Numbered from the stretch's first letter, positions 7,892-59,857 are shown. The stretch is 64,000 nucleotides of DNA from Candidatus Binatia bacterium (GCA_019749875.1 JAIEPK010000479.1:7184-71183); one strand, 5' to 3'. A program made the numbers and translations. Notes: a model not told the origin generated them from the sequence alone.

Positions 7892-7900
7892 GATTTCCTC

Positions 7901-34959: not shown

Positions 34960-35047
34960 CGGCCTAGCCTCGCTTCCGCCCGACCACCGTCGGAACGAAC
35001 GCCGCGCTCGTGTTCCGACCTCGCGCCGCGACGCGCACCGGTGGCAA

Positions 35048-35491: not shown

Positions 35492-35591
35492 TCGATCACC
35501 CGAAGCACCCTCGCATTCGCCACGATCGGACAGCGCGCACGCCGCCCGCCAACCGTACGATCGATCATCAGCCCGACGCAGTGCTGCGCAC

Positions 35592-38738: not shown

Positions 38739-38748
38739 GCTCGTGCCT

Positions 38749-40095: not shown

Positions 40096-40109
40096 CAGCG
40101 CGCGACCAC

Positions 40110-41411
40110 TCACGGCAGGCGACCTCCTCCCGCCGCTTCTGACAGGATACCGGCTGCCTCCTCGAGGCGGGCGAGAGCCTTCTCGAAGTTTGCGCGCTCC
40201 TCGTAGTAGCGAAGCTGGTACTCGTTCAGCACGGTGAAGCTGTTGAGGACCGTCAGGAAGTCGACGTCTCCGACCTGATAGCCGGCGAGCGCCGACGTCA
40301 GCGAGCGATCGGCTTGCGGAACCACTGCGCTGCCGTACAGGCCGACGAGGCGATCCGCGCTGGTGGCTTGCGCGTGGAATTCCTTGATCTTCGCCAGAAC
40401 GTCCTGGACGGCGCTCTGACGGCCCGCTCTTGCCTCGCCTACCCCGGCCGCCGCCTCGTCGACGCCGAACGTCTGCTTGCGCCAGAAGTACAGCGGAACG
40501 CGGATGCCGGCACCGATCTCCCATTCGGGTACGAGTGCAGCCTTGTTGTAGTAGTCCGCCCGGACGACGAAATCCGGATAGTATTGACGCTCGGCGAGAT
40601 CGAGGCTCGATTCGGCTCGGTCTACATCGTACCGCGCCGCTTCGAGATACGGCGAACGCTCCCGGGCCAACCGCTCGAGGTCATCGAGCGAATACGTCAA
40701 GGACGATTTCTCGATCGGTGCAGGGCTGCCGAGAGCATCGAACGGCGGGCGATTCATCACCGCGTTCAGCTCCGCGGCACGAGCCTGTCGGGCCTGCTCC
40801 AGACTTGTCAACCGACCCAGCAACGTGGACAGCTCCACCTGCGCCCGCAGCACGTCCTGCTGAAGGCCGTTGCCGACCCGGTAGCGCGCCTCCGCAGCGT
40901 GCGTCAGCTTCTCGAGGAGCTGCTTGTTCTTTCCGATGATCTCCAGCGATTTGAACGACACAAAGTAGTCGCTGTAGGCGACGCGCAGACGGGTCAGGAC
41001 GTTCAAGGTTGTCGCGCGATACATGGCTCCCTCGCGATCGGCGACGTGAGTGGCGACCTCCTCCTTGAGCGACAGCTTGCCCGGGAAGGGGATCTCCTGC
41101 TCGATGCCAAAGCGCAGCCATGAGAAGTCGCTGCCCCCTTGCGTGAAGCGATCAAAGCTCTCGTTGTGATAGGCGGTATTGACCATCGGATCGGGCAGCG
41201 ACCCCTCCTGGGACGGACGCGCCTGTGCTGCCCGCCACCGCTGCTCGGCAGATCGTATGTCGGGATTGTTCTCTAATGTGTACGATCGGAGATCGGAAAG
41301 ATTCACCGTTCCGTCGAATCCAGGCCTGTCCTCTGCTCCGGCGACCGGCAGCGATGCCCGGACCGAAAGGACGACGACGAAAGCGATGGCCCTAATGTTG
41401 GACGGCTTCAT
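40110..41411 (-). CDS. cusC: Outer membrane efflux protein, CusC/TolC family
   Basis: Signal MKPSNIRAIAFVVVLSV, then the duplicated TolC coiled-coil/beta repeat pattern. Confidence 0.8.
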   Translation of the reverse strand: MKPSNIRAIAFVVVLSVRASLPVAGAEDRPGFDGTVNLSDLRSYTLENNPDIRSAEQRWRAAQARPSQEGSLPDPMVNTAYHNESFDRFTQGGSDFSWLRFGIEQEIPFPGKLSLKEEVATHVADREGAMYRATTLNVLTRLRVAYSDYFVSFKSLEIIGKNKQLLEKLTHAAEARYRVGNGLQQDVLRAQVELSTLLGRLTSLEQARQARAAELNAVMNRPPFDALGSPAPIEKSSLTYSLDDLERLARERSPYLEAARYDVDRAESSLDLAERQYYPDFVVRADYYNKAALVPEWEIGAGIRVPLYFWRKQTFGVDEAAAGVGEARAGRQSAVQDVLAKIKEFHAQATSADRLVGLYGSAVVPQADRSLTSALAGYQVGDVDFLTVLNSFTVLNEYQLRYYEERANFEKALARLEEAAGILSEAAGGGRLP

Positions 41412-42927
41412 CACGCAACCCCGGGTCCGGGCCTTGCTCGCTCCCCCGCATGGCGGGCAGCAGCCGCTCCCTTCGAAGGACGCAGAAGCGCGCCGTGATC
41501 TTCGGGGGGTCGTAATTGCGTTGAACGGCGCAGAGGTCTTCGCCTCCCCCGTAACGAACATCTCCGCCGACGAGAGCGAGCAGGTTCAGGTCTCGCGCCA
41601 GCTGGTAGCCGTCGAAGTGCGTCCACAGTCGCTCGCGCCCCCACCCTCGGGAGGGCGCGAGCCTGCAGTAGACATCGAACGGGATGCACGCGAGCGTGAA
41701 CTCGAAAGGATCCAGCCCGAGGCCTTCCACGATCCGCGCACCATGAACGCGCGTCGCGTCCTCGATCACGAGCCGCGGCAAGGCACGTCGCTGGCTGAGA
41801 CCGAGTTGGGTCAGGAGTGTCGTACGCGCGTCGGGGTCGTCCTCAGGAAAGGTCTCCACAAGAACGGTTTCCTCGTCGAAGCACGGCAGATACCGGCTTC
41901 CCGCCGACGTCATGAAAGGATGAAGCAGAAGCAGGTCGAGATTCTCCCGCAGCAGCGAGCTGACTCCGGGCGGTCCCGCATGCCCGCACGTCCGACAGGT
42001 GCCGACCCGTCGGCTGCCCTCGCTCAATGGTCGCTCCGGGAAGGTCGGACAATCGCCACAGGCACACGTCAAGTAAGCGAGAATCAGCGGTGCGGCTGCA
42101 ACCGTCTCGGGCGCAAGCCCGAGGTCGTGTCCAATGCGCACGACCGGCTCCGGCAGCGCGTTCGCCAGCTTCCGGCTGCCTGATTTCACCGGGTGGAGAC
42201 GGCCCAGCGAACCTGCCCGCGGCGTGCGGGCCAGCAATTGCGTCAGCCGGCGCACCTCGCCGAAATTCGACTCGTCGACCGCCTGGCTGAGTCTCGTCAC
42301 GAGTTCCTGAGGGTCGACCAGGAGCGATTCGTCGCCCGCTGTCACCCTGAGCCGGTCGAAATACTGCGCTCGCGCGATGTACAACGCTCTCCATTCGGCA
42401 TCACGGTCGGCGAGCACGCGCAAGCTTTCGCACAGGGTCGCGCGCTCCCGCTCCAACGCCACGCCCGGGTGGGAAGTGAGCCCGTTGAGGGCCAACGTGA
42501 CAGGACTCACGGCGAAATTGCGTGGGCCGTAGATCGAACCCGCCAGCTCCGCGATGGACCCGAGACGCGATACTCTTGCCAAGCTCGACTCTGCGGCTTC
42601 CGCCAAGGATTGCGCATCCTCCCACTTGGTTTTCTGAATCGCGTCTCGAAGCGCAGTCCGGAGCTCGGGCAACGCTGCGCGCTCACGCTCGAGACCTTCG
42701 AATTCCCTCCGAGAGAGGAGCGGTGCGAGGAACCTCTCCGCTCTGCACAGGTAGAGGTCGGCAAAGGCGGGATCGGCTTCGCCGAGCGCTCGAAGTGCAA
42801 CGATGACCTCTATGGACGAACTACTCGCTGGCGATTCCGGCCCGTCAGACCTCGCCACTCCGATCTTCATGATCACATCATCCAACGTTGAACGTGCCAG
42901 AAGCCTTCTTCTGTACCGCGATGCCAC
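41392..42927 (-). CDS. Hypothetical protein with CxxC...CxxC zinc-ribbon-like cluster, first gene of the cus operon
   Basis: 511 aa soluble protein with CACGDCPTFPERPLSEGSRRVGTCRTCGH. Overlaps the cusC start by 20 nt. GTG start at 42927; ATG alternative at 42870. No family recognised. Confidence 0.45.
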   Translation of the reverse strand: MASRYRRRLLARSTLDDVIMKIGVARSDGPESPASSSSIEVIVALRALGEADPAFADLYLCRAERFLAPLLSRREFEGLERERAALPELRTALRDAIQKTKWEDAQSLAEAAESSLARVSRLGSIAELAGSIYGPRNFAVSPVTLALNGLTSHPGVALERERATLCESLRVLADRDAEWRALYIARAQYFDRLRVTAGDESLLVDPQELVTRLSQAVDESNFGEVRRLTQLLARTPRAGSLGRLHPVKSGSRKLANALPEPVVRIGHDLGLAPETVAAAPLILAYLTCACGDCPTFPERPLSEGSRRVGTCRTCGHAGPPGVSSLLRENLDLLLLHPFMTSAGSRYLPCFDEETVLVETFPEDDPDARTTLLTQLGLSQRRALPRLVIEDATRVHGARIVEGLGLDPFEFTLACIPFDVYCRLAPSRGWGRERLWTHFDGYQLARDLNLLALVGGDVRYGGGEDLCAVQRNYDPPKITARFCVLRRERLLPAMRGSEQGPDPGLRDEAVQH

Positions 42928-43026
42928 ACTTCAGCAGCAAGAAGACGGCGTGCGGCTCTGGACGCCAGGCCGTGAGTACGGCAGACATCCCGACGGTCAC
43001 CGAACTTTCGAGAAAGGGTCAAGTCC

Positions 43027-43299
43027 TCACCGTGCCTTCAGGTACTCGAGCAACGCGCGCGCGTCCTCCGCTGGCAAGTTTGCGCGGACTCGCATGTGGA
43101 GCATGATCGTGTCCCATTCAGCGGGGGAACGTTCCGAAGCCGGCCTCGCATTGTGGCAGGCCCCACAGTAGGGCGACCAGAGACGAGCCCCGCGACGAAC
43201 GAGCGCTCTCCGCTCCGCCTCCTCCTCCGCTGCGAGCGCAGGTGGTCCGAATTTCCCGAGCACCAGTGCGGCGACGAGCAACAGGGTCCAGGGTCGCAT
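43027..43299 (-). CDS. Small monoheme cytochrome c (90 aa)
   Basis: Signal MRPWTLLLVAALVLG, CGACHN heme site, GGAGGG RBS ~12 nt upstream of the ATG at 43297-43299. The rest of ORF 43027-44280 is an Arg-rich shadow frame. Confidence 0.6.
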   Translation of the reverse strand: MRPWTLLLVAALVLGKFGPPALAAEEEAERRALVRRGARLWSPYCGACHNARPASERSPAEWDTIMLHMRVRANLPAEDARALLEYLKAR

Positions 43300-43319
43300 T
43301 CTTTGCACGGCTACCCTCC

Positions 43320-44621
43320 TCAGAAGCCCACCGCGATCTGCGTGCGAATCGCGTCGTCGTTCGGAGCGTCCTCCGGGAGATCCCGATCGTATTCGAGCTT
43401 CCACGCAACGGAGGGAGTGAACCAGTAGTCGAGACCGAGGGCGACTTGTCGCGGGTGGGGGACCAGCTCTTCGTCGGTGACCGCGCGCTGGTTCACGCCG
43501 GCGTAGCGCCCAACCAGCTCCAGCCGGTCGAGGTACGGCACGGCGATCCGCGCCAGCTTGTAGGCGGCTTGCACGTACCACCCCTCCCGGTCGTCTGCGC
43601 CGACGTCGCTGGGCATCTCTCGCTTCGTTCGAATGTACTCGGCACGAACCTCGAGCTCCGCGACCTGATAGGTCAGGTCGAGGCCCCACGACGTGAACCA
43701 GAAGTTCCCGCCGTCGTCCCACTTTCCGTCGAACGTCGAGGCCCCGAACATCACGCGGCCGATCGGGTTGTCCAACGGCAACGGGTAGAGGGCGAGACGC
43801 GCTCCGTAGCCCTTGCCACGGTTGTTGTCGATGTTGTTGGGATTCAGCAGTGCTCCCACTTCGTCGGAGTCGAAACGAGGCCCGTTGGCGATATAGGCAC
43901 TGTAGGCGAGATTGAGTCCTTCCCAGTCTCCGATGCGCGCACCTCCGCGGAGTTGGAATCCCGTGTTGCTGTAGGGCAGCAGCCCTCCCTCCTCGGGCTC
44001 GCGGAACGGAAGAGGAGCCGACACCATCTTGTTGATCCAAGCAGGATGCAGCTGCTCGATGAACTGTCCGAAGGGCACAAGAAATTTGCCCCCGACCGCC
44101 GTCACGTAATCGTTCAGAACGATGTCGGCCTGTGCGTACTCGAGGTTGACCTCGGTATCTCCGTCGTCCTTCAGCTCGAACTCGGGCTCGGCCTCGAACA
44201 GGATCCAGTCCGCCATCCGATAGAGAAAGATGGGAGCCAGCGTTGCCGTGAATGTGTTGCTGTTGGCATTGCGCTGCCATTCATAGGCCCCCGCACCCCA
44301 GCCGGTCAGTACGAAGCGGCCATCACCGAAGTAACGATCGAGGTAACGGCGTGGTGCTGACGCCGCCTGCTTCTCGACCTCCTGGGTTACCTTCGCTTCG
44401 AGCGCATCCTGCTTCTTCTCTTCTTGCACCTGGATGGTCTCGAGCTTGCGCTCGAGATCTTCCATCCGTTGCCGGTTGCGCTCGTTCTCTGCCCGAAGTC
44501 GCTGCATCTCCTCGCGCAGCTGGCGAACCTCGCTCGCGGAGTCGGCGGCGGCCCGCGGTACCCAGAGGAGCGTTGCGGTGGCGAGAAGCACCAGAGCGGC
44601 CAGAATTGCACGCACCCGCAT
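43320..44621 (-). CDS. Outer-membrane porin-like protein with N-terminal coiled-coil (phosphate-selective-porin O/P-like)
   Basis: Signal MRVRAILAALVLLATATLLW, coiled-coil LREEMQRLRAENERNRQRMEDLERKLE, then beta-rich Gly/Tyr/Asn-rich sequence ending in aromatic F. GGAGGG RBS. Confidence 0.65.
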   Translation of the reverse strand: MRVRAILAALVLLATATLLWVPRAAADSASEVRQLREEMQRLRAENERNRQRMEDLERKLETIQVQEEKKQDALEAKVTQEVEKQAASAPRRYLDRYFGDGRFVLTGWGAGAYEWQRNANSNTFTATLAPIFLYRMADWILFEAEPEFELKDDGDTEVNLEYAQADIVLNDYVTAVGGKFLVPFGQFIEQLHPAWINKMVSAPLPFREPEEGGLLPYSNTGFQLRGGARIGDWEGLNLAYSAYIANGPRFDSDEVGALLNPNNIDNNRGKGYGARLALYPLPLDNPIGRVMFGASTFDGKWDDGGNFWFTSWGLDLTYQVAELEVRAEYIRTKREMPSDVGADDREGWYVQAAYKLARIAVPYLDRLELVGRYAGVNQRAVTDEELVPHPRQVALGLDYWFTPSVAWKLEYDRDLPEDAPNDDAIRTQIAVGF

Positions 44622-44622
44622 G

Positions 44623-46341
44623 TCACCCTCCGTTCGTTTCCGATCCCGATCCGCTGCTCGACGGCTCCGAGACATCCCGCGATTGGGATGGCGTGGCTCG
44701 CTGCGCGGCGAGATAACGTGCGATATCTTCGATCTGCGCATGCGTGAGTGGCCCATCGGGTGCCAGGAAGCCGGGCATTTGCGAGTTACCGATGAGGCTC
44801 TTCGGGTCCTCGATGTAGCGATGGATGAACGAACGTGATCGCGCGTCTCCGATGCCGCTCAGGTCGGGGCCCTTGTCGCCGCCACGTCCGGCAATGCGAT
44901 GGCATTCCGAGCAGTAGCGACGGGTCATGCGAGGCGCCTGATCGCCGTAGGGGCCGCCGCCCCGGAGCTCGTCGACGTACGCGATCAAGGCATCGATCTC
45001 AGCGTCGCCAAGTCCCAGCGGCGGCATCAATGAGCCAGGAACGACGGCCTGTGGATTCCGGAAGTGAATCCGCATCCACGCACCGTCATGCGCTGGCATC
45101 GAGAGAGCCAGGTCGGGACCAACGAGACCACCTTGTCCGCGTACGCTGTGACAATGTGCGCAGTGGAGCTCGCGAGCGAGCCGCATGCCGTCATCGACAA
45201 GACGCGGGCGCGGGACGTAGGGACTGACCAGTGGCGACCGAGCGCCGGCAACCGTCAACCAGACGATCGCGACCGCCGTCAGGACGACAGCTGCGGTCGC
45301 GAGCGGTCGGTCGAGGGGATGGCGGCGCAGTCGGGAATCGAGAAGGGGAAGCGCAAGCAGAGCCAGGATCCCGAGGGACGGCAGCACGACCGCCGCGACC
45401 GATTCCAAGGATCCTGGAAAGTACTTGAGAAGCTGGAACAAGAACAGGAAGTACCACTCCGGGCGCGGGTTGAAGCTCGTCTCCGTCGGATCGGCGATGT
45501 CGCCGACTTCCGGCGGCGAGTGCCACGCCAGCAGCAGCAGGACCACGAAGACGACGAGGATGGCGATCGCGTCCTTGGCGAGACTGAACGGGTAGAACGG
45601 GTCGCCGGCCTCCTTGGCATCCTGGTAGCGTTCTCGAACCATCCGCCGGGCCGTCACGGGATCGTCGGGAAGCTGCTCCCCCCGGATGGGCGGCGCAGAG
45701 ATGCCCTGGCGAACGACCACAAACAGGTGGAACCCGACGAGCAGCAGCAGCACGGCCGGAAGCAGCAGCACGTGGAACGCGTAGAAGCGGGTCAGCGTCT
45801 GGGCACCGAGGTCGTCCCCGCCTCGCAGCACCTGGGCGATGGCGGGTCCCACGAACGGAGCTTGCTCTGCGATCTTCGTTCCGACCTGTGTCGCCCAGTA
45901 CGCCTTTTCGTTCCACGGCAGAAGGTAGCCCGTGAAACCGAGGCCCAGCACGACCAGCAGCAGCAGAACGCCCGAGATCCACGTCGCCTCACGCGGATAC
46001 TTGTACGCGCCCGTCAAGTATGTCCGCAGCATGTGAACGGACACCACGAGGACCATCGCACTGGCGCCCCACACGTGCAGCCCGCGCACCATCGCTCCCA
46101 TGGGCGCCTGCTCCATGATGAATCGCACGGAATCGAACGCGTGGTCCGGGGTTGGCGCATAGCTCATCGCGAGGAATGCGCCTGTCGCGGCCTGTACGAG
46201 GAACAGGAACAGACTGATGCTGCCGAGCGTATAGATCCAGCCCACTCCCCGCGGGATCTTGCGCGCGAACAGCGCCCGACCCACAGCTCGTGTTCCGATC
46301 CGCTCGTCGAACCAATCGGCGAGCGCGCGGCCCGTGAACAT
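44623..46341 (-). CDS. Cytochrome b (bc-complex type) fused to C-terminal diheme cytochrome c domain
   Basis: N-terminal cytochrome b core with multiple TM helices and conserved His. C-terminal CAHCH and CSECH heme-binding motifs. Confidence 0.8.
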   Translation of the reverse strand: MFTGRALADWFDERIGTRAVGRALFARKIPRGVGWIYTLGSISLFLFLVQAATGAFLAMSYAPTPDHAFDSVRFIMEQAPMGAMVRGLHVWGASAMVLVVSVHMLRTYLTGAYKYPREATWISGVLLLLVVLGLGFTGYLLPWNEKAYWATQVGTKIAEQAPFVGPAIAQVLRGGDDLGAQTLTRFYAFHVLLLPAVLLLLVGFHLFVVVRQGISAPPIRGEQLPDDPVTARRMVRERYQDAKEAGDPFYPFSLAKDAIAILVVFVVLLLLAWHSPPEVGDIADPTETSFNPRPEWYFLFLFQLLKYFPGSLESVAAVVLPSLGILALLALPLLDSRLRRHPLDRPLATAAVVLTAVAIVWLTVAGARSPLVSPYVPRPRLVDDGMRLARELHCAHCHSVRGQGGLVGPDLALSMPAHDGAWMRIHFRNPQAVVPGSLMPPLGLGDAEIDALIAYVDELRGGGPYGDQAPRMTRRYCSECHRIAGRGGDKGPDLSGIGDARSRSFIHRYIEDPKSLIGNSQMPGFLAPDGPLTHAQIEDIARYLAAQRATPSQSRDVSEPSSSGSGSETNGG

Positions 46342-46847
46342 CAGCTCCTCCGCTGCGCCAAGGGCACGACGAAGAGCTCGCCACCCTCGATCGTAGCCGG
46401 ATAGACGTCCAGCGGTCGCGGAGGAGGGCCTCCGATCACACGGCCGTCAATGTCGTACAACCCGTCGTGGCAGGGACAAAGAAAACGGTTCTCCTTCACC
46501 TGCCAATGATAGGCGCAGCCGAGATGTGTACAGCGCGGGTCGAAGACCAGAACATCGTCGGTGCTGCGCTTGACGACCCAGGCAGCGTGCCGACCTTCTT
46601 CGGTTACCCAGCCGTCACGCTGCCGCAGGACGAACTCGACCTTCTGAGGCTGGTTGGCTTGAAAGTCGCTCACGGCCCCGAGCCGTACGCGCAACGTCTC
46701 GCGCCGCCGGAGGAGCGGCCCGAGGAAATAGCCAACCAGCGGCGCCGCGAGGCCAAGACCAACCAGGGTGATGATCGACCAGAAGCAGCGCGCGAGCCAT
46801 TCTCGCCTGTCGACCGAGTCGCCCGCCCCCTGGATCACTTCGGACAT
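46341..46847 (-). CDS. Rieske 2Fe-2S protein
   Basis: CTHLGC and CPCHDG Rieske boxes with an N-terminal TM anchor. Confidence 0.85.
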   Translation of the reverse strand: MSEVIQGAGDSVDRREWLARCFWSIITLVGLGLAAPLVGYFLGPLLRRRETLRVRLGAVSDFQANQPQKVEFVLRQRDGWVTEEGRHAAWVVKRSTDDVLVFDPRCTHLGCAYHWQVKENRFLCPCHDGLYDIDGRVIGGPPPRPLDVYPATIEGGELFVVPLAQRRS

Positions 46848-47200
46848 AGACCACGAATGAATGCGAGCGTGTCGCGAATCTCGCTGTCGTCGAGCGCATC
46901 GGCGTATGGCGGCATATCCTTCGACAGCCCCCCCGCCGGGCCGCCGTCCTTGATCACGCGAAGTAGCTGCTCGTCGGTGAATGACGACATGCGCGCGCAG
47001 TCGGCAAGGTCCTTTGGCTTCGTTGCGAGCGTCGCGGCTTCTTTCCCATCGCCCTTACCTGCGGCGCCGTGGCACTTCGCGCACAGTTCGGCATACGTGG
47101 ATTTCCCGCGCGCGACATCTGGCTCGGCTGCGCGTGCCGTCAGCGCCGCCATGCCGATTCCCACCGCACACGCTGAAATCAAGAGAGCGTATCGCCTCAT
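46835..47200 (-). CDS. Periplasmic monoheme cytochrome c
   Basis: Signal peptide plus CAKCHG heme motif; distal Met likely in DMPPYA. Confidence 0.8.
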   Translation of the reverse strand: MRRYALLISACAVGIGMAALTARAAEPDVARGKSTYAELCAKCHGAAGKGDGKEAATLATKPKDLADCARMSSFTDEQLLRVIKDGGPAGGLSKDMPPYADALDDSEIRDTLAFIRGLCPK

Positions 47201-47351
47201 GTGGATCTCCCGAACTCGTGGCCGGAAAGCTCTCGCTTTGCCCCGGCAAGATCGTGTCGGCCAAAGCGGCGAGTGCGCTGCGACCGGGCGCGACTGTGAA
47301 GGCCGGACGACCTAGCGCCCCGCACCATCAGTCGCGCACCGGCCGGGCAGC

Positions 47352-49097: not shown

Positions 49098-49617
49098 CAG
49101 TTGTGCTACATCTACTCCGATGGAATCGAGAGATCAAGGCGTCGAGGAACGACCGCATCACCCAGACGCGCAGCTGTTGGTGCCGAGCGTCCGCCTGGTG
49201 GTGTTTACGGCAGGCGCCACGGCGGACAACCCCAAATCCGGTTTGGTGTCGCCCGAGGGGGCGGCCCTGCCCAGCGGAATGCGAAATATGCGAGTGACAG
49301 CGAAGTCGTCCCGGCACCAATGCCGGCCAAGCAGGTGGTTCGGAAGTCGGGGAAGTGATTTCGGCGAGACCGAGCGGTGACTGCCGCTGGCTCACCCGGT
49401 TGCAGCAAGGCGAGGAAGGCATTCCCAAGGTCGAGGCCGACTATCTCGAGATCATTCGCGCTACTCCGTAGCGGTCGCGCTCGCAGTTCGGCGTGTTCGA
49501 CGTGCTGATTGCGCTCTCCTCTTCGACGACGCCGTGGTCGTTGGCTCCGGCAGCGTGACGACCCTGGGGCTTCGGCCGTAGCAGCGTGCCCACCGTGAGG
49601 TAGCGCCGCACGACGGC

Positions 49618-50150
49618 TCACTCGTCAAGCTGCTCGGCCAGTACCGCTCCCACGAGACGGATGATCGCATCGCGGTTCGGGAAGATCCCGACGACGTCGG
49701 TCCGCCGCTTCGGCTGGCGGTTGAGCCGCTCCGCGGGTTGTTCGACCAGATCTGTCGCCGGTGCTCCTTCGGCAAGCTTGCGAAGCCCAGCAGATCCGCC
49801 TCTCCGTCGCGCAGCAGCTCGGCAGCCGTAGGCCAGCGCGCTTCGAGCTGCTCGACGACACGCGCGTGCTGAGCCCGTGTGAGCTCCGCATCCGGTTCGG
49901 CGAAGACCATCCGCACCAGCGTCGCGACGAGCCCCTGTGCGCTCTTCGTCAGCAGGTTGCGCATGAAGTGCGTCCGACAGCGCTGCCACGCAGCCCCAGG
50001 CAGCGTCGCCGCGATCGCATCTCGGAGCCCGGCGTGCGCGTCCGAGATCGCGAGCTGCACGCCGCGCAGTGCGTATTCCGGCCGAGTCGATCGCCAATTC
50101 CGGTCGAAGCCGATCAGCGATGGTGTCGACCGGGCAGTTCGTCCGAGGAC
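49618..50150 (-). pseudogene. IS256-family (Mutator-type) transposase, C-terminal fragment, frameshifted and truncated by the IS481 insertion
   Basis: Frame A gives [28 protein letters not shown]...IWSNNP. Frame C then gives [37 protein letters not shown]. Together these match the IS256 Tnp C-terminus. The upstream part is missing at the IS481 boundary. Confidence 0.6.
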
Positions 50151-51542
50151 ATGGGTGACAGCTGTCCGGTCCACATAGGTGACAGCTTGCCCGATCCTGC
50201 TTCTTCCGTGTTCCTAATTCACCTCTTGCTTGATGGCGCTGCGAGTCCGATGCGGCGACAGAAGCGTTCTCTCACTTCACTCGCGCCCAGCACGTGACCG
50301 GTGGGCGAATCAGGCCGAGTTTGGAGCGTTCGTCTAGGAAGCCGAGCCGGACGGCTGCGAAGAAGACGTGGTGCATTTGGTTGGCCGTCTCGATGCCGAT
50401 CCATTCCCCTTCCAAGGCATGCCCGATCGTCACCATCGCGCTCTTCCAGCGGATGCGTCCGCTGGCCGCGACCTTTCGCATCTCGAAGTGCTCGGGGTAA
50501 TGCACGTCGGGCAGTCGGCGTGGGTACGATCGCGGGGATGGGCGGTAGCGCGACGACGGCGTCCCGTTTTGGAGAGCTTCGTGTGGCCGCTCCTCGTTGT
50601 ACTCTCGCTGGAACGCGTCGAATCGGAGCTGCTGGCGGCGCAGTGTGGCCGCAGGCGGACGAACGGTCTCTTGCTTGAGCGTGCGATGCATCCGCTCATG
50701 CCGTCCGTTCTGCTCGGGATGGCCGGGCTCGATGCGTTCGTGCCGAATTCCGAGCTTCACCCACCAGATCGAGAGCTGCGATAGTCCTCCCGCTCCACGG
50801 CTCGCGAATGGCGTACCGTTGTCCGTGCGGATGCGTTCGGGCAGACCGTACTCCCGAAACACATCCTCGAAAACCGGGCGGACGCGGATCGTCTTCGTCG
50901 ATCGAAGTGCCGTGCAGCGAAGCAGCGTGCGGCTGAAAGCATCGGTCACTGTGAGCGGATAGCATCGCCGCGCGTCGCCTGTCTTGAAGTCGCCCTTGAA
51001 GTCGGCACACCAGAGGCGATAGGGTTCGTCCGCCTCTGCAAAAGGATCCGTGTACGGAGGCGTTCGGCGTCGTGCCTGGCGGGCTCGTGAGCGAAGAGAG
51101 CGCTCACCGTGCTCGCGACTGGCAATTCGAGCCGTGGTTGCTTGACGGCGAGCCAGGCGAGAATCTCGCGCCCCCCCCAGTGCGGGTGCGAACGCCGCGC
51201 CTGGATCAACGCCTCGATGACAGCCGCATCGACCCTGCTCGGGTGCGTGATTGGCGCTCGCGAGCGATCTACGAGCCCGCTCGGCCCCTCTTCGTTGTAG
51301 CGAGCGACCCATTTGTAGGCCGTCTTGCGGCTCACACCGAACTGGCGAGCAAGCTCGCTCATCGGCTCCTCGCCCTTCATGTACGCACCGATCAGCACAA
51401 TTCGTTCGTCCACCCGTGACCGCTCCTTCCAGACCATCGATCGTTCCTCCCCGGAACGACCGAACCCGTCTGCCTTCAGCGTGTCACCTATGTGGGTCGG
51501 ACCGTTGTCGCCGATGTCGACCGGGCAGACTGTCACCCATGA
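50151..51542 (-). mobile_element. IS481-family insertion sequence (~1.39 kb) with imperfect terminal inverted repeats; transposase frameshifted
   Basis: Terminal repeats catgggtgacagctgtccggtccacataggtgaca (left) and tgtcacctatgtgggtcggacc...cagactgtcacccatg (right). The transposase N-terminus (HTH, ELARQFGVSRKTAYKWVARY) is in ORF 50946-51536. The DDE integrase core (LWCADFKGDF...TDNGTPFAS...HPEQNGRHERMHRTLK) is in ORF 50272-51312 in another frame. Confidence 0.7.
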
Positions 51543-52776: not shown

Positions 52777-53817
52777 TTAGCTCGCGGCTCCACACCTCCT
52801 ATACGGCACGACCAACATCGCTGCAGCCTTCCGTTTGGCGGTCTCTCCTCGATGGTCGTAGCGCGCGGTCGTCGTGAGGCTCGCGTGTCCGGCGAGGCGC
52901 TGTACGAGGGCGAGGTCGACCCCCGCCTCGAGCAGGTCCGTGATGAAGGTTCGCCGCAGGTCATGCGGGGAAAAGCGCCGCCCGCCTGCAGCCACGCGTC
53001 GGCGATCGAGCGCCGCATAGATCGCCTGATCGGTCATCCCACGGAGCTCGAGGCGCCCTCCCTTCCGGACGCGGACGAACAGCCGGCCGGGGCCCATACC
53101 CCGCACGACGAGCCAGTCATCGAGCGCTGCCGCGGTGCCTCCGAGCGCGTAGACGACCCGCTCCTTGCGCCCTTTGCCGACTCGCACCCGGAGCTCGCCC
53201 GTGACGCGCGCGTAGTCGGATACATCGAGTCCGGCAGCCTCCGATCGCCGAAGGCCGCAGCCCACGAGGACCGCCAAGATCGCAGCGTCTCGGGCTCCTG
53301 CGGGCGTCCTGTCGTTGCCGCAGCATGCGAACAGCGCCTCGACCTCCTCGCGCGCGAGTCGCCGGCCGCGTGGCAGTTGGCTCCCTGTGACGAGCGCGAT
53401 GTCAGCCGCCTGCTGGTACTCCTCGGCTGTCATCTGACCGAGCCGCCATGCTTCGCGCAGCACTCCGCGGAGAGCCGCGATGAAGCGGTTCGCGGTTGCG
53501 CGGGCGCGCCGCTGCTCGATCAGCAGCGCGCGCACTCCGCTCGTTTGCCGGTACCGGAGCGAAGCCCACGGGATCATGTCCACGTCGTGGCTGCCACCCG
53601 AGAGCATGCGCGCGATCTCGGCAAGCGTCGCCCCCATTACACGCCGCGATGCGGGCGAGGTGAGCTGATGGAGGTAGACGCGGGCTGCGTTGGGGGTGGC
53701 CGGCGGATCCGGACAACCCGCGAGCGGTGAGCGATCGAGGCTCAGCGCCTGGGGCGACGTGGGACCTTGCTTCTTATCACGTTCGCAAAGTCCCACTTCC
53801 AAGGATTGTGCGCCCAC
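52777..53817 (-). CDS. Tyrosine-type site-specific recombinase/integrase
   Basis: Catalytic R..HDLRRTF..LGHASLTTTARYDH with Tyr in TARY. N-terminal SAM-like domain. Probable GTG start. Confidence 0.85.
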   Translation of the reverse strand: MGAQSLEVGLCERDKKQGPTSPQALSLDRSPLAGCPDPPATPNAARVYLHQLTSPASRRVMGATLAEIARMLSGGSHDVDMIPWASLRYRQTSGVRALLIEQRRARATANRFIAALRGVLREAWRLGQMTAEEYQQAADIALVTGSQLPRGRRLAREEVEALFACCGNDRTPAGARDAAILAVLVGCGLRRSEAAGLDVSDYARVTGELRVRVGKGRKERVVYALGGTAAALDDWLVVRGMGPGRLFVRVRKGGRLELRGMTDQAIYAALDRRRVAAGGRRFSPHDLRRTFITDLLEAGVDLALVQRLAGHASLTTTARYDHRGETAKRKAAAMLVVPYRRCGAAS

Positions 53818-54086
53818 GCCGCCATCATGTCAATACGTACGTACATCAATACAACAAGACTGTGATCACTTTCGCAAACGAGTGTTTTCATAAACGATCG
53901 GACCTGGCGGTAGCGCTTGGGCGGCTGTCCGGCTCGTCGCTGGCGATCAAAACCGGCCAACGAGGTGTCCACCAAATCCGCGGCGGACTCGACGTAGCTC
54001 GTACCGGCCGCACAGCGACGGCGAGTGTCTGCCAGTCGATCAACGCGAGCGCGGAATCACGAGCTTCTCCCGACGTACTCCGGCGC

Positions 54087-56606
54087 TCAGACCGCGATGA
54101 CCACTGGCACCTCGACGCGCGGTTCGATGACCTCGTAGACGCCCGGACCGAAGACGGAGACGATGAGCGAGAAGCGCATAACCTGCTCCTTCAGGTGGCG
54201 GCGCTGATCCCACCACCCGAGCACCGGGATGACTGCGAGGAGCTTGTCCCCGGCGAGCTCGGACATCTTGCCGCGCCACCGGTCGCTCTGGACCGTGCCG
54301 CGACTTCGAAGCTGCACGCCAAGATCCCACGGAAAGGACTTCGTGACGGCCACCTTCTGTCGCTTTCCATCTGGTCCCGTGGGGCGTTTCAGGGCGTTGA
54401 TGCGCTGCAAGAACGCGCTCTCCGATTCCTGTGGCCCCTGCATGTCCCACTTGAGATCGAGCCCGTGGAAGACGGTTCGTCCAAACTTGTTCGGCTCGGT
54501 GAAGTACGAGAGCGTCACGCGAAGCTCGACGTCGGGGTCGGTGTCGCCGAGCTGCTCGTTCGGGATCGGGAGACGAAAGACCATTAGCTTCCGCCGCAGC
54601 TTGGGTTCCGTCGTCCTCGTCGTGGGGCGCTTGGGCGGTTTCTTCTTCGGCTCGTCCTCGATCACCCCGTTCGGCATCGCATCCTCGACGACGACGGTCG
54701 CGCGCTCCTGGGCGCACTCGGATGCGAGCCGCTCGTCGGGCACACCGTATCCACAGGCCAGGACGCGATCGTTCATCCCACCGAACTGCTGAATCATCTC
54801 CTGGGTCCAGCTCGCCGAGTGCACGATGAGCCCGCGTATTGTCTCTGGCTGGAGCTTGGGCTCGACCGCCCAGATGCGCGCGGCGAGGTGGGCAGCTCGA
54901 GCGGTGGCTTCGCTCGTCATGGAGATCTGTCCAAGCGGTTGCCCGAGGGTATGCCGATGGCTCGTGGTCAGCGCGCTCAACGTCGGAACGCTCGCGTCTG
55001 GCAACGAACCCGAAATCGCCAGATTCCCGCCCTCCATCACGACATCCGGCTTGATCGGCCACTCGTTTCCAGCGAGCCCCGTGCTCGTGAACGGCGAGAT
55101 GCCACCTGGGCGCCTCGCTACGAGCTGCGCTTCCGCGTAGTCCTCCGAGGCCGGAAGCTCGACTCGAGCGGTGAACGCGCCCACCGTCAACGCGTTCGCT
55201 GCCTGAGCGGGTTGATGGATCTTCTCCGAGAGTTGAAGCTGCGGATGCTGCTCCGCGAGCGCCAGCCACAGCTCGTACCTGGCGTTTCCCGCGGAGACGA
55301 CAATCAGGCGCCCGTGGCCCTCGTGATGGGCGATTTGATCGATGGCGTGGCTCCAGAGCGTCGGTACCAGACCCTGCAGCGGCGGCTCCTGCATCGTTCT
55401 CGTGATCGCGAGGGCGAACACTCGACCGCGCGGGCGAGGATCGGCGTCCTCGGCCGAACGAACCGCTCCGAGCGTGAGGACCGGCCATTTCTCGTAGTTG
55501 TCATCCGACGCGGTGCCTTCGCCGGGCTGGACGAGCAGGCGGCTGCTCTGGAGCCAGTGCATCGCCGAGGCGCCGCCACGCTCAATCGCCGCGCCGAGAT
55601 CGCGGTAGAGGGCCACGCCAGCCATCTTCGTACCATGGCCGTGCGTATCTTCGGGCGATGGGATCAGATCGCCCGCCGTTGTCGCAGAGAGGATCGCCGG
55701 CTTCAGCAGCGGGTGGCCGGTTGCGATGCCCGTGTCGAGAATGACGACCGCGGGCGCGTCCGCGTCCGGCGCCTGCAAGAAGAAGTCCTTCACGTCCTTC
55801 GTGGTGACGTCCTCGAGCAGCCGGAGATCTCGCAGCGGCGGCGGAGCGAGCTCCACCTCGTAGATGCAGTCCGTCGCGGCACGCAGCGCTTCGAGCTGCG
55901 GCTGCGTGAGTCTCACGAAGAAGTAGACCTGCTCCGGCCCGATGAATTCATCGAGCCGCTCGTGGGGTGCACCCGCCCGGTACAGTTGACGAGCGATCTG
56001 CGCGCGGCTCTCTTCTGTCTCGGAGAGCGGACGGCGATAGCCACCGCGACAAGCGACCTCGAACCAGTACGGGCGATCGGCGACGAGGGCTTCCGCTCGA
56101 AGGCGCGGTCCACGCATGTCGTCGAGCTGGGCCAGGCCGATCGCGTCAACGGGGGCAATCGCGCGTTCCTTGTCACGATGGACGGTCGTGGTCCCGTCCT
56201 TCTCGGTCTTGCTTCGTGAGCGCGCATCATCGCCGAAGGCATCGACCTTGTCGCGAAGGTAGCCGAGGTGCGGTTTGGCGACGTCCAGAAGAACGGTACC
56301 TGTCTCCTGAACCACACCGATGAGGCGAGCATCTTCCCGGACGTCGTCGAGCTGCTCGGGTGTCAGCTTCGTGCCGGGCGAAGGGTGCACTGCGACGATC
56401 TCACGAGTCGCCAACTCGTCACGAGCAGTCTCCGCGCGCCCCTGAACCTGGCGCTCGATCGTGTCGAGCTGGGCGACGAGGCGAGCCCTAAGCGCCTGTG
56501 GATCGAGAGACGGGAGTTTCGGTGGTGCGCCGCCGCGCTGCGGCGCCTCGTAGGTGTCGACCGCGGAGACACGTCCGCGAAGAAGCGGTAGTCGCTCTTC
56601 GGCCAT
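54087..56606 (-). CDS. S8 family subtilisin-like serine peptidase with long N- and C-terminal extensions (839 aa)
   Basis: Catalytic Asp in VVILDTGIATGHP and His in HGHGTKMAG. Oxyanion Asn in VVSAGN. Probable Ser in ISMTSEATARAAHLAA. About 270 aa of extension before and ~250 aa after the core. Confidence 0.85.
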   Translation of the reverse strand: MAEERLPLLRGRVSAVDTYEAPQRGGAPPKLPSLDPQALRARLVAQLDTIERQVQGRAETARDELATREIVAVHPSPGTKLTPEQLDDVREDARLIGVVQETGTVLLDVAKPHLGYLRDKVDAFGDDARSRSKTEKDGTTTVHRDKERAIAPVDAIGLAQLDDMRGPRLRAEALVADRPYWFEVACRGGYRRPLSETEESRAQIARQLYRAGAPHERLDEFIGPEQVYFFVRLTQPQLEALRAATDCIYEVELAPPPLRDLRLLEDVTTKDVKDFFLQAPDADAPAVVILDTGIATGHPLLKPAILSATTAGDLIPSPEDTHGHGTKMAGVALYRDLGAAIERGGASAMHWLQSSRLLVQPGEGTASDDNYEKWPVLTLGAVRSAEDADPRPRGRVFALAITRTMQEPPLQGLVPTLWSHAIDQIAHHEGHGRLIVVSAGNARYELWLALAEQHPQLQLSEKIHQPAQAANALTVGAFTARVELPASEDYAEAQLVARRPGGISPFTSTGLAGNEWPIKPDVVMEGGNLAISGSLPDASVPTLSALTTSHRHTLGQPLGQISMTSEATARAAHLAARIWAVEPKLQPETIRGLIVHSASWTQEMIQQFGGMNDRVLACGYGVPDERLASECAQERATVVVEDAMPNGVIEDEPKKKPPKRPTTRTTEPKLRRKLMVFRLPIPNEQLGDTDPDVELRVTLSYFTEPNKFGRTVFHGLDLKWDMQGPQESESAFLQRINALKRPTGPDGKRQKVAVTKSFPWDLGVQLRSRGTVQSDRWRGKMSELAGDKLLAVIPVLGWWDQRRHLKEQVMRFSLIVSVFGPGVYEVIEPRVEVPVVIAV

Positions 56607-56609
56607 GGA

Positions 56610-57593
56610 TCACCCCCTGGCCGGCAACTCGCGTCGCTTCAGCTCCTCGAGGGCGTGGACAACATCGTGTTCGCTGATCTCTTCGCGGTCGTCGAGAGCC
56701 ATCGTCCGAACCGAGTCGTCGCACGCCCGCACGACATCCGCGAAGCTCCAGCCATCCGCTTGTGAGGCGAGCTGCTCCGCCTGTGCCTCCGTCAGCCCGA
56801 TCGTTCCCAAGCGCAAGTTGAGGAGGTCGACGATCTGGTCTCGCGTCGGCCTCTCGAAGGGGACGATCACGTCGAACCTACGGAACACCGCGCGGTCGAG
56901 CAGCTCGACGTGGTTCGTGGCGGCCACGAGAATGCTCCCGCTGACGTCCGCGTCGACGAGCTGAAGGAACGCTGTGACGACACGATTCATCTCACCGACG
57001 TCCTGCGAGTCACCTCGGGCCTTCGCGACTGAATCGAACTCGTCAAAGAGATAGACACCGGGGCGACGCGGCATCTCGGCAAAGATCGCCCGCAGCTGAA
57101 CCGCCGTCGCGCCCAGGAAACGCGAAAAGAGTGCGTCGAAGCGCACGGTCATCAGCGGAAGACCCATCTCGCCGGCGAGCACAGCCGCCGCCAGCGTCTT
57201 CCCGCAACCCGGAGCACCGTGGAACAGTAAACGGCGCCTTGGCGAGACCCCAAACCGTTCGAGGCGACTGCGCGACCGATTCTCTGAGATCACCCTGAGC
57301 AGAAGATCGCGAACGTCGGCCCGCAAGACGATGTCGCGCAGCCGCTCGTCGCGATGTCCGCCCTCGAGGATGTCCGCAAGCTCGCCACGAGGGCTGGCGA
57401 TGTCGACGATGGGGCCAGGCTTCCGAGCACCAGCCGCGGGCATCTTCGCGACGATCGCTCGGATCTCATCGGCAACTCGGACGTGGCCGGCAGTGCTCTC
57501 GGCCGCGGCAAGTTGCAACGCGGCCTTTCGAAACGACGACTCGTCGCCCTCGGCATGCGACTGTAGCAGCACCTTGAGGATGTCCGCCTTCAT
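56610..57593 (-). CDS. AAA+ ATPase (classical AAA, SpoVK/CbbX-like single-domain) with ~110-aa N-terminal domain
   Basis: Walker A LLFHGAPGCGKT, Walker B VYLFDEFD, sensor-1 ILVAATN, Arg finger LDRAVFRRFD. Start MKADILKV, with an AAGGGAAG RBS. The ATG overlaps the upstream TGA (ATGA). Confidence 0.85.
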   Translation of the reverse strand: MKADILKVLLQSHAEGDESSFRKAALQLAAAESTAGHVRVADEIRAIVAKMPAAGARKPGPIVDIASPRGELADILEGGHRDERLRDIVLRADVRDLLLRVISENRSRSRLERFGVSPRRRLLFHGAPGCGKTLAAAVLAGEMGLPLMTVRFDALFSRFLGATAVQLRAIFAEMPRRPGVYLFDEFDSVAKARGDSQDVGEMNRVVTAFLQLVDADVSGSILVAATNHVELLDRAVFRRFDVIVPFERPTRDQIVDLLNLRLGTIGLTEAQAEQLASQADGWSFADVVRACDDSVRTMALDDREEISEHDVVHALEELKRRELPARG

Positions 57594-57799
57594 CTCGCTG
57601 CTTCCCTTGGCGCGAGAATCTGCCGCCTCAGGTTCAGGACTAGTTTTCGCTGATAGAGCCGGTACCCGTTCATCGGGTGCCGGCGGGCACGCAGCTTGCC
57701 GGCCTTGTCCCACCGCCGAAGGGTCTGCTCGCTGACGCCCAGCAGCTCGGCTGCAGCCTTGATCGTGAGAACGTCGGGGACTGTCGCTTCGCGGGCCAC
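57590..57799 (-). CDS. Excisionase/AlpA-like MerR-superfamily HTH DNA-binding protein (start uncertain)
   Basis: LTIKAAAELLGVSEQTLRRWDKAGKLRARRHPMNGYRLYQRKLV matches the HTH_17/Xis pattern. Possible GTG start at 57799; the longer ORF runs to 57931. The stop overlaps the AAA ATPase start. Confidence 0.55.
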   Translation of the reverse strand: MAREATVPDVLTIKAAAELLGVSEQTLRRWDKAGKLRARRHPMNGYRLYQRKLVLNLRRQILAPREAAR

Positions 57800-58278
57800 T
57801 CGCGCGAGGGCTATACAACCTTGATCATGGACGCAAGATCTCGTCGGGCTCTCGTGGCGTGTGGCTCCCGGGAGGATCCTCTGAGGATCTTCCCGGAGTC
57901 GCCACCTGAGCGGCCGATCGCGGTGTGCCACTCGGCGTCGCTCAAGAGTGGGCTCTGCGGCTCGCCGTACCTCTGCTCGTTGGCTGCGTGCTCTTCATGC
58001 CGCTCATCAAGTATCTCGAGCTGTTACGCCGTGGTGCGAATGGCTCTCGCGGGAGGCCCCTGACGAGGCCGACGGCAAGTCTCTCGCCCCGACTCGGCAT
58101 TTGACCTCGTCGCCGCGACAGCGAGCATGCCGGCGTTGGATTCCCGGACCGAGAACCCCTTGACCAGATCGCTGACAAGGATCAACCGCGGCGAGCGCTG
58201 CTCCCACCTTCAGGCGGCCGACCGGCACGGGGATCTCGGGCGGGGGAGCCGGGCGCAACAGCCGACGAGGGTCGACCT

Positions 58279-58440
58279 CTAGAGAGCGGCCGCGATGCTG
58301 ACCAGCATCGCGAGGGACAGGGTCGTCCGCGCCCGCTCGACCTCCTGAATGGACCGTGGGCAACCTGCGCCTCGCGAGCCAGCTGCTCTTGCGTCACGCC
58401 GCGCCGCTCGCGGAGCCGACGAACGTTCGTCGCCCAAGGA
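58279..58440 (-). pseudogene. XRE-family HTH gene disrupted by a frameshift
   Basis: Frame 3 gives NVRRLRERRGVTQEQLAREAQV. Frame 2 gives AGCPRSIQEVERARTTLSLAMLVSIAAAL. Together they reconstruct a Cro/C1-type HTH (ELA..AGVSRS.IS.IERG...L..L..IA.AL) split by a 1-nt shift near gaggcgcaggttgcc. Confidence 0.35.
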
Positions 58441-58478
58441 ACGCGCCCATCTTCCCGTCGATCCGTCCGTCGATCCGT

Positions 58479-58973
58479 TCACAGCGCCTCGATGAACAGC
58501 CGCGGATCTATTCCAAAGAGCTGGGCCAACTCCAGTGCAGCGGTATGGAACGCCTCGCCGTGCTCATCAGGCTCAAAATGTCGGTGCAGCGTACGGTCCG
58601 CCGCAAGAGCTGCGCCTTCCGGGGTGACATTACCGGCAACGATTTTGTCCTCGTACTCGTGCACGAACTCGTGATGGAGATCGCGCTCCCAGATAGGATA
58701 GCCATCGGGAGGAGGCGTCGAAGGAAGGTCCGTCGTTGAAGGAGTGGCCGGCACCTGGTCGAGGTCGAGGCCCGTCGCTATCCCAAGGATGATCTCATTC
58801 CTGCTCGATCGGTAACCCGACGTGATCGCGGCGTCGAGGACCAGCAGCGTCGCCTTCACACGACCCGCGCCACGGCTCCCTATGGCCTTGTCCCACATTC
58901 GGTCGTATCGCTTCCGTACGCTGGCAAGCTTGTCAGCGGGAATGAACGGATACCCATACGCGCTCGTTCGCAT
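58479..58973 (-). CDS. Hypothetical protein with HExxH motif (possible small Zn-metallopeptidase, ImmA/IrrE-like)
   Basis: 164 aa from MRTSAYGYPF, with a GGAGTGGAGG RBS upstream. Contains DLHHEFVHEYED, i.e. HEFVH. No confident family. Confidence 0.45.
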   Translation of the reverse strand: MRTSAYGYPFIPADKLASVRKRYDRMWDKAIGSRGAGRVKATLLVLDAAITSGYRSSRNEIILGIATGLDLDQVPATPSTTDLPSTPPPDGYPIWERDLHHEFVHEYEDKIVAGNVTPEGAALAADRTLHRHFEPDEHGEAFHTAALELAQLFGIDPRLFIEAL

Positions 58974-59857
58974 CAACCTCCACTCCCCGAAGCGCGCGCG
59001 TAGGCCTGTCGCGTCCCCCTCGGACGCGCTCACCACGAGCCCCTTGCTCCGACCGACCACTCAGCCCGGCCTACTCCGAATACTGCGGCAGAGTGGTCGC
59101 TGGTTGCGTACCGCATCAACGCAATAGTTGGCAAGCGAATTCTCCTCATCCTCCCCTGTTCGCAGGCTCTAGTACGAGGTCTGGGTCATCGCGACCCTTC
59201 CCGTTTCTCGAGATGAACGCACTTCCTCCCTTGCTTGACTCACAGTGTTGGGCTGCAGCCGCAACCGTCGATAGCGGCAGCTCGGTATTCTCGGGAGCGC
59301 CGGATCGACCGATCGGCACGTTCGGGCTGAACCACGGTCGCGTCGAGAGTCGCATCCAGAATGGCGGGACAGCTCGTCTGCGAACACGCGTCGAGATACT
59401 CAAAGGTTCCCTTGCCCTCGAGGTGGAGGGTCGGCTCTGCAGCGCTTGCCGCGCCTATCCTTCCCAGGCACACGACGACGCTCACAATAGCGACCAGGTC
59501 GGCCGTCCAGCGGTACATGGCGGCGGCTATCGCGCGACGGTCCACCCTGATCAAGTCGCCAAATCATGTGCTGCTCGCGTGTTGCCCTCAGCAGCGCTGT
59601 GTGGTCGACGATCGGTGCCAGCCAGTACGCTCGATCGACGCCTTCGCGCTGTAGGTCGGCATTCGGGAGGAAGCGTCCCTCGGGACGAACGTTCCGCCGC
59701 AGTCGGCGTTTCATCCCGCGTGATGCCCCGACGCTGAAACCCGACGACAGCGGCGATCTTTATTCCTCGGCGCGTTCATCTTCTCGCGATGACGTATCAC
59801 CACCGCGGTCGCCCGACTTCTCGAGGACCTCGCGTCACGGCCGAGCAGTGAGCTGGG

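Follow-up and report, generated by a model that had tools for sequence, protein, structure and literature searches.

The window analysed here is a stretch of 64,000 nucleotides (nt) from a Candidatus Binatia bacterium assembly (GCA_019749875.1 JAIEPK010000479.1:7184-71183). Between positions 54,087 and 57,799 it carries three genes on the minus strand, which encode a small helix-turn-helix (HTH) protein, an AAA ATPase and an S8 family protease (subtilase). The ATPase and the protease very probably form a divergent member of the IetAS toxin-antitoxin and anti-phage system, and the genes are accordingly called ietA and ietS below. In the order in which they are read, the three open reading frames (ORFs) are:

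57799 (GTG) to 57590 (stop), minus strand: HTH gene, ORF of 69 amino acids (aa)
57593 (ATG) to 56610 (stop), minus strand: ietA, AAA ATPase, ORF of 327 aa
54087-56606, minus strand: ietS, S8 protease, ORF of 839 aa with its ATG at 56606

Read on the minus strand, the HTH gene and ietA overlap in an ATGA at 57590-57593, where the TGA of the HTH gene (57590-57592) shares letters with the ATG of ietA (57591-57593; …GCG AGA TGA AGG…). The TGA of ietA at 56610-56612 is followed by a 3-nt 'tcc' spacer and then by the ATG of ietS at 56606 (…GGG TGA TCC ATG GCC…). ORFs and junctions agree with a sequence-only reading of this DNA, which had described three co-oriented minus-strand genes joined by an ATGA overlap and a 3-nt spacer. 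The domain content given there for the two larger proteins also held: an AAA ATPase with intact Walker A and B motifs, sensor-1, arginine finger and an N-terminal domain (~120 aa by our measure), and a subtilase with the full D/H/N/S catalytic set and ~500 aa of extensions (~284 N-terminal and ~234 C-terminal residues outside the catalytic domain). A longer, 402-aa version of the ietA ORF, starting at a TTG at 57818, was rejected as an over-extension, as 119 homologue clusters have lengths of 320-335 aa and most of those listed have 327-328 aa.

Profile searches, structure prediction of the protease extensions and a comparison of gene neighbourhoods, all of which the sequence-only reading had proposed, were carried out. 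Pfam and PADLOC gave IetA, IetS and MerR/HTH_17 matches for the three proteins. The PADLOC IetA model PDLC02196 matched the window ATPase at E=1.1e-74 over residues 4-320 (profile positions 6-323 of 374), and the IetS model PDLC02198 matched the protease at E=2.3e-40 over residues 215-794; six further IetS models matched as well. The best-named NCBIfam matches were 'anti-phage ATPase IteA' and 'S8 family anti-phage peptidase IteS', with scores that did not reach the equivalog cut-offs (212 bits against 510 for IteA_antiphage, NF042959, and 64.4 bits against 900 for IteS_antiphage, NF042956). Because they fall under these cut-offs, the proteins carry only generic names at NCBI, 'AAA family ATPase' and 'S8 family peptidase'.

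The founding pair was reached through tblastn against plasmid sequences. On Agrobacterium fabrum pMP90, a disarmed derivative of pTiC58, genes annotated as 'ATP-binding protein' (328 aa) and 'S8 family peptidase' (836 aa) stand in this order with 3 nt between them, and they match the founding ietA and ietS. Window IetA is 41% identical to the pMP90 protein over 321 aa (E=6e-77), and window IetS is 32% identical to its counterpart across residues 116-818, including the C-terminal domain (E=3e-65). The two loci share the order ietA then ietS, the 3-nt spacer and very similar protein lengths (327 and 839 aa here, 328 and 836 aa on pTiC58), and the catalytic and ATPase motifs as well as a C-terminal domain with TLSYF-EP and GWW motifs are present in both. 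In contrast, the first ~115 residues of IetS do not align, and the pTiC58 pair has no overlapping HTH gene, the upstream gene on pMP90 encoding a DUF6088 protein ~250 nt away. The genomic setting differs too: whereas the founding pair is carried by a plasmid, the window copy is found among chromosomal genes (RND efflux, cytochrome b/c) beside an integrase and insertion sequence (IS) elements, not on a known plasmid. What the PADLOC ietAS and DefenseFinder Gao_Iet definitions describe is thus present at the locus, that is, a full-length IetA with its N-domain, an IetS that matches beyond the catalytic domain, ietA before ietS on the same strand, and intact motifs. The PADLOC models and the near full-length homology to the pTiC58 pair make the AAA-S8 pairing a named and studied system. 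The sequence-only reading was right in proposing a conflict system of the NTPase-plus-protease type, which is IetAS. It was mistaken in regarding the pairing as unnamed, given the PADLOC IetA and IetS models, the NCBIfam IteA and IteS families, the pTiC58 pair and the published work.

The function of IetAS depends on the catalytic residues of the protease and on the ATPase motifs, and anti-phage testing of the system is reportedly also due to Gao et al. 2020. In the IetAS system of pTiC58, the serine protease is the toxin and the ATPase is the antitoxin; defence depends critically on protease activity, and attempts to make an ietA mutant did not succeed (PMC13069673). As that paper relates, citing Yamamoto 2009, IetAS was first described as a toxin-antitoxin system of plasmid stability and incompatibility. 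A helicase-bearing variant, ietHAS, has a third gene that contributes to the control of toxicity (PMC13069673). The ietAS of B. cereus acts by abortive infection and is toxic when co-expressed with yosG of SPbeta, and ietAS is among the systems that phages escape via mutations in their core replication proteins (bioRxiv 10.1101/2022.08.27.505566). The E. coli ietAS has been used in tests of synergy (bioRxiv 10.1101/2022.08.21.504612). By the models, the window pair belongs to the same two-protein family as the IetAS systems tested in E. coli and B. subtilis, and the expected logic is likewise that of a protease effector, an ATPase antitoxin and abortive infection. Unlike those tested systems, the window proteins score under the NCBIfam cut-offs and belong to a different subfamily.

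IetA is a classical-clade AAA+ ATPase made up of a conserved N-domain of ~120 aa, one AAA module (Pfam AAA, E=3e-25, residues 122-247) and a lid. Across 131 sequences, the Walker A residues G126, P128, G129, G131 and K132 were invariant and T133 was kept in 98%, and the Walker B residues D184-E185, the sensor-1 residue N227 and the arginine fingers R238/R239 were conserved. Pore loop 1, which reads (K/R)-(F/Y)-(M/L)-G161, was present in 130-131 of the 131, with an aromatic residue at position 159 in 130. The nearest solved structures to the AAA module were AFG2, p97 and VAT (E ~1e-45), and the module also resembles Cdc48, PAN and FtsH; our search of the PDB returned no solved structure of IetA or IetS itself. 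As AFG2, p97 and VAT are protein unfoldases, IetA probably threads a polypeptide.

IetS was divided into three regions:

55767..56501, minus strand: N-terminal region, residues 36-280, a long helix followed by strand-helix modules, the most variable part of the protein
54792..55754, minus strand: catalytic S8 domain, residues 285-605
54090..54701, minus strand: C-terminal beta-rich domain, residues ~636-839, conserved across the whole IetS family

The catalytic domain matched Pfam Peptidase_S8 at E=3.9e-42 (residues 285-605), and its residues D291, H324, N441 and S565 were identical in all 104 sequences compared. The C-terminal domain carries the motifs TLSYF-EP at 698-705, W760, and P794 with G797-W798-W799; L699-S700-Y701-F702 and G797-W798-W799 were invariant in the 104 sequences. 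Structure prediction modelled the extensions as propeptide-like domains and a C-terminal β-sandwich domain. The last N-terminal module (residues ~180-253) has a beta-alpha-beta-beta-alpha-beta topology that resembles subtilase propeptides, an assignment we regard as tentative. Neither a signal peptide nor a transmembrane segment was found in IetS (maximum Kyte-Doolittle value over 19 residues 1.47, N-terminus -0.02), and the protein is predicted to be cytoplasmic. From the models, IetS may tentatively be described as an intracellular, kexin-style, zymogen-like subtilase that combines a pro-like module, the catalytic domain and a P-like domain, the propeptide part being provisional.

Gene order and conservation were compared by tblastn over 164 loci, which comprise 160 from two scans of sequence collections with IetA as query, the pMP90 locus and three look-up loci. 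We refer to loci whose IetA is at least 55% identical to that of the window as the near clade, and to those at 37-47% as distant. IetS lay directly downstream of IetA at 133 of the 141 evaluable loci (25/26 near, 108/115 distant), and the 3-nt spacer between the two genes recurred on pMP90 and at L082, L083, L084, L167, L168, L169 and L170. In the near clade, residues 121-240 of IetA, its AAA core, were 98-100% identical to the query in 119 clusters (homologue clusters P0001-P0240). Near-clade IetS averaged 72% identity, with conservation lowest over the first 240 residues and at the very C-terminus. This asymmetry would fit a diversifying effector or sensor held together with a constrained ATPase.

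Nucleotide similarity between the window and near-clade loci was limited to ~54103-57840 (for example, 84.5% identity to L001), and the flanks differed in every relative. As similarity ends at the edges of the cassette, the mobile unit is the 3.7-kb cassette together with ~40 nt upstream, moving by itself. The integrase, the IS elements, and the XRE and HExxH genes of the window were common to no relative of the cassette; homologues of the integrase were found within the fetched flanks at 0/31 near-clade and 2/133 distant loci. Window IetS is listed as 100% identical to P0121, a Candidatus Binatia protein. Close relatives came from many Myxococcota (Archangium, Sorangium, Stigmatella, Kofleriaceae, Polyangiaceae), one Thermoanaerobaculia and one Geothermincolia assembly. 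IetA was 80-93% identical between Myxococcota, Binatia and Acidobacteriota assemblies with unrelated flanks, and the distribution was patchy. This indicates, with the usual caution on the binning of metagenome assemblies, horizontal spread of the cassette; the GC content of the window showed no anomaly. Relatives were also found in mobile surroundings, with a P4-type integrase at L165, an rve transposase at L168, IS91 at L170 and HipA at L082. That the cassette is mobile, as the sequence-only reading had held, is therefore borne out by the limits of similarity, the unrelated flanks and these surroundings. Two further loci lie in mobile or defence-like surroundings: L083 (1-9700 and 18659-20984) has a block of phage-like character that contains Amidase_2, a RhuM-like gene and a serine recombinase, and L092 (1455-5900) has an ORF of 1481 aa that ends ~100 nt before IetA.

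Alternatively, the pair might act mainly as an addiction module, stabilizing the integrase/IS island by post-segregational killing, with phage defence secondary or absent. The first description of IetAS as a plasmid stability system, in the account given above, speaks for this, as does the position of the window copy beside a tyrosine recombinase and IS elements. IetA homologues are moreover common on plasmids, with 1367 matching records in PLSDB, of which 492 match across 80% of the query or more. However, the cassette is tied to no particular element, and the plasmid and phage collections held no copy more than 60% identical to window IetA, so that no near-clade copy was seen on a sequenced plasmid. 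An addiction role is also compatible with defence, as toxin-antitoxin and abortive-infection roles coexist in the IetAS family. We consider addiction as the main function possible, if rather unlikely.

The third gene of the cassette encodes a protein that matched Pfam MerR (1.8e-13, residues 12-49) and HTH_17 (6e-9, residues 10-49), PADLOC mad1 (2.4e-13) and, in NCBIfam, the excisionase-family domain TIGR01764 (29.5 bits against a cut-off of 28.8) and, under the cut-off, the BldC family (5.8e-6). In the PDB it matched MerR-like 3qao, SkgA (7cla), a 'putative DNA-binding protein' (6amk/6ama) and Gp37 (4j2n). The protein is not a classical MerR regulator, since the matches are confined to the HTH part (MerR profile positions 1-38; MerR_1 2-48 of 69). 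By these matches it is a bare, single-domain winged helix of the MerR type (BldC/Xis-like). Like BldC family proteins, the Xis/excisionase-family proteins of phages and mad1, it has ~70 aa and only a MerR-type winged helix, and like mad1 of the MADS defence system it heads a defence operon. Unlike MerR, it lacks a dimerization helix and an effector domain; it has no recombinase linkage, and its DNA target is presumed. The family is small, with 263 matches that are all ~70 aa long.

An HTH homologue was found upstream of IetA at 13 of 27 evaluable near-clade loci and at none of 120 distant ones. At all seven places inspected (six reached via four HTH homologues and one via an Archangium IetA), the HTH gene overlapped the AAA gene by 4 nt. 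The S8 gene followed HTH-AAA wherever the contig allowed a judgement, except at L165, where the gene after IetA had no S8 match. Besides the HTH gene, L165 has its own P4-type integrase and a separate AlpA, which lie near alaS and csrA (2210-3673). Near-clade loci without the HTH gene showed no consistent alternative upstream gene, the candidates being mostly spurious ORFs of high GC content. At L005 (~7860-8000), DNA resembling part of the HTH gene was present, with an alignment to window position 57737, yet tblastn gave no HTH match. At L083 and L084 (~9790-10000), tblastn found the HTH sequence in a stretch that lacks a called gene and whose longest frame is a different one. The copies at L005, L083 and L084 may be decayed or frameshifted.

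Downstream of the cassette, at a distance of 270 nt, lies an integrase gene:

52777..53817, minus strand: tyrosine recombinase, XerC/D-like (Phage_integrase 1.7e-30, residues 153-323; NCBIfam XerC 124 bits, under cut-off)

Its proximity, 3.8 kb downstream of the HTH gene and on the same strand, together with the HTH_17 and TIGR01764 matches and a weak PDB match to mycobacteriophage Gp37 (4j2n), could be taken to mean that the HTH protein is the excisionase, or recombination directionality factor, of this integrase and abuts IetA by chance. This is very improbable and already contradicted by the relatives: the 4-nt overlap with IetA is kept in loci without a homologue of the window integrase (0/31), HTH is followed by AAA in 7/7 independent places, and at L165 a distinct AlpA accompanies the integrase of that locus. 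In addition, the integrase is only a neighbour that lies outside the conserved DNA block. On the absence of integrase homologues from the near-clade loci and on the arrangement at L165, we assign the HTH gene as a dedicated upstream partner of one IetAS clade, not as the excisionase of the adjoining integrase. Of the AlpA/excisionase-type HTH in the sequence-only reading, the domain assignment stands (HTH_17, TIGR01764), whereas a role as Xis partner of the integrase does not.

A conserved element precedes the HTH gene:

57806..57840, minus strand: promoter-like block, conserved upstream of the HTH gene in an alignment of 14 HTH loci

Its parts are a -35-like TTGCGT at 57836-57831, an invariant core AAGGTTGTATA at 57822-57812 and a -10-like TATAGC at 57815-57810, and the 14 aligned loci have the block cTTGyc…GATCAAGGTTGTATAAgc in common. 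The motif AAGGTTGNNTA occurred 227-237 nt upstream of the IetA ATG in 19/19 HTH loci and had only 23 matches in 1.68 Mb on both strands. The GTG start of the HTH gene lies ~10 nt past the -10-like hexamer, so that any 5' leader would be very short. We infer that the block is a promoter with a very short leader, regulated by the HTH protein. A generic sigma-70 scan of 53.7-58.5 kb did not call the block; the only site it returned lies in front of the integrase. A dyad operator around the -10 element was tried as a candidate and rejected: a perfect 14-nt inverted repeat was seen at L082 only, and in a symmetric-arm test over 17 loci most scored no higher than shuffled sequence, the window reaching 6/12. 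Two side observations concern the same region. At L094, a near-clade locus without the HTH gene, AAGGTTGNNTA stands 81 nt upstream of IetA, and the promoter block may have been kept there after loss of the HTH gene. In the window, a 14-nt inverted repeat with a 1-nt loop, CCGGGAGGATCCTC / GAGGATCTTCCCGG, lies at 57868-57896, just upstream of the block and outside the DNA common to the relatives; possible readings are a terminator or an insulator for the gene upstream, or the junction at which the cassette inserted.

The window cassette resembles ietHAS (Liu-DS4) in having an IetAS core with an added third gene upstream. Unlike ietHAS, in which the third gene encodes an SNF2-type helicase, the added gene here encodes a 69-aa DNA-binding protein. 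A search of the literature that combined ietAS with 'helix-turn-helix' returned no paper, and the dedicated HTH gene with its promoter block in one widespread clade appears to be the only unreported feature. A further-reaching proposal is that HTH, IetA and IetS make up a three-component subtype of IetAS not described before, in which the HTH protein, with its AAGGTTGNNTA block and near-leaderless start, is functionally required, and which spread recently between Myxococcota, Binatia and Acidobacteriota. The HTH protein could then link infection to the expression or activation of the protease, or keep toxicity under control in the manner of the ietHAS helicase. We put this forward tentatively and think it doubtful as it stands.

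It is very likely, in our view, that the AAA-S8 pair of the window is an intact, divergent IetAS within a self-contained, mobile 3.7-kb cassette of promoter, HTH gene, ietA and ietS. Several observations weigh against this assignment or narrow it. The scores far under the NCBIfam cut-offs place the pair outside the E. coli-type subfamily, for which defence has been tested. This clade of IetAS is known from sequence alone, and what it does in a host from Binatia or Myxococcota (activity, toxicity, the phages targeted) is a matter of prediction. Half of the near-clade loci are without the HTH gene, which makes it dispensable for at least some copies. Finally, a palindromic operator is unsupported, L082 being the sole perfect dyad and the other loci falling within the range of shuffled sequence.

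A working model for the window system takes from the literature on its homologues the assignment of toxin and antitoxin, the abortive-infection behaviour and a trigger of phage origin. IetS would be a cytoplasmic, toxic effector subtilase, and IetA, a single-ring AAA+ protein with an intact threading pore loop, would keep the pro-protease harmless in an ATP-dependent manner, most likely by acting directly on IetS, perhaps at its N-terminal, prodomain-like module. A phage-encoded protein or the state of infection would upset the balance between IetA and IetS; IetS would then cleave proteins of the cell or of the phage, and growth of the infected cell would come to a halt. The same toxin-antitoxin logic would stabilize whatever mobile element carries the pair. 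The HTH protein would most likely bind the conserved promoter block, as a putative autoregulator, and so set the expression of the three translationally coupled genes.

The protein architecture could also be read as that of a housekeeping pair, a secreted subtilase or quality-control protease with its chaperone or maturation ATPase, as a prodomain-like module, an S8 domain and a C-terminal beta-sandwich recall secreted subtilases and kexins, and the IetA module recalls Cdc48, PAN and FtsH. However, IetS lacks a signal peptide or membrane segment, the cassette is spread patchily across phyla with highly identical IetA, unrelated flanks and mobile surroundings, and homologues proved toxic and defensive in experiments, which leaves this reading with hardly any probability. 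An uncharacterized, unnamed defence system, to which the generic NCBI names and the scores under the equivalog cut-offs might point, is barely credible and already refuted by the direct full-length homology to the founding IetA and IetS, the PADLOC models and the same operon architecture.

The identification as IetAS is therefore mainly corrective: what appeared to be a new 'AAA + subtilase' conflict system is a known one, masked by generic NCBI labels. It may also help work on the IetAS mechanism by pointing to a large environmental clade in which a small HTH gene is dedicated to the system and a cis element is conserved. Useful in the same way are the conserved IetA core set against a diverged IetS, the canonical threading pore loop and the zymogen-like, intracellular IetS. 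Together, these features suggest a testable model of an unfoldase that controls an intracellular pro-protease.

Around the cassette, the window contains the following further features:

53805-53833, minus strand: promoter-like site of the recombinase, TTGACA-17-CACAAT, the sole consensus sigma-70-like site in 53.7-58.5 kb
within 58182-59060, minus strand: ORF of a HExxH protein, 193 aa, with HEFVHEYE
58279-58482 and 58182-58397, minus strand: XRE-like gene split over two frames, directly after the HEFVHEYE ORF; fragment without Pfam match
33067-34959: glycogen-phosphorylase-like protein with a YHS domain
35592-38825 (ACR_tran), 38749-40524 (HlyD) and 40110-41561 (OEP): RND efflux trio
44623-46341: cytochrome b/c fusion
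49461-50174: truncated IS256-type ORF, a Transposase_mut fragment adjoining the IS481 element
50148-51518: IS481-family element of ~1.37 kb with rve/rve_3 and LZ_Tnp_IS481

The promoter-like site at 53805-53833 overlaps the annotated GTG start of the recombinase, so that the true start may be further downstream. Most of the setting described in the sequence-only reading was recovered. The tyrosine integrase at 52777-53817 next to the cassette was confirmed by its Phage_integrase match, and the IS481/IS256 nest by rve, LZ_Tnp_IS481, Transposase_mut and 37-nt repeats. The frameshifted XRE gene was recovered in part, the split being visible in the translations and the fragment matching no Pfam family. 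Similarly, the HExxH protein exists as an ORF with HEFVHEYE, which matched nothing in Pfam, PADLOC or NCBIfam. The arrangement of the HEFVHEYE ORF and the XRE gene recalls the ImmA/IrrE-type metalloprotease/repressor pairs of mobile elements. The proposed defence-island setting was not borne out: in ten neighbouring ORFs (51.8-64 kb) PADLOC found no second system, with only a weak HTH_VI match on an XRE protein, and the DNA to the left holds efflux, respiratory and sigma factor genes. The window contained no tRNA or tmRNA, and no convincing direct repeats flanked the integrase and cassette. The left flank (~31-48 kb; 31221-47315) encodes ordinary chromosomal functions, including an extracytoplasmic function (ECF) sigma factor, so that the mobile region begins only at ~49 kb. 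Within that region, the IS481 element has terminal inverted repeats of 37 nt at 50148-50184 and 51482-51518 that are 84% complementary. Its transposase is split in different frames, with an HTH/LZ_Tnp_IS481 ORF at 50946-51536 and an rve ORF at 50272-51312, and the adjoining IS256-type fragment suggests that one IS has inserted into another.

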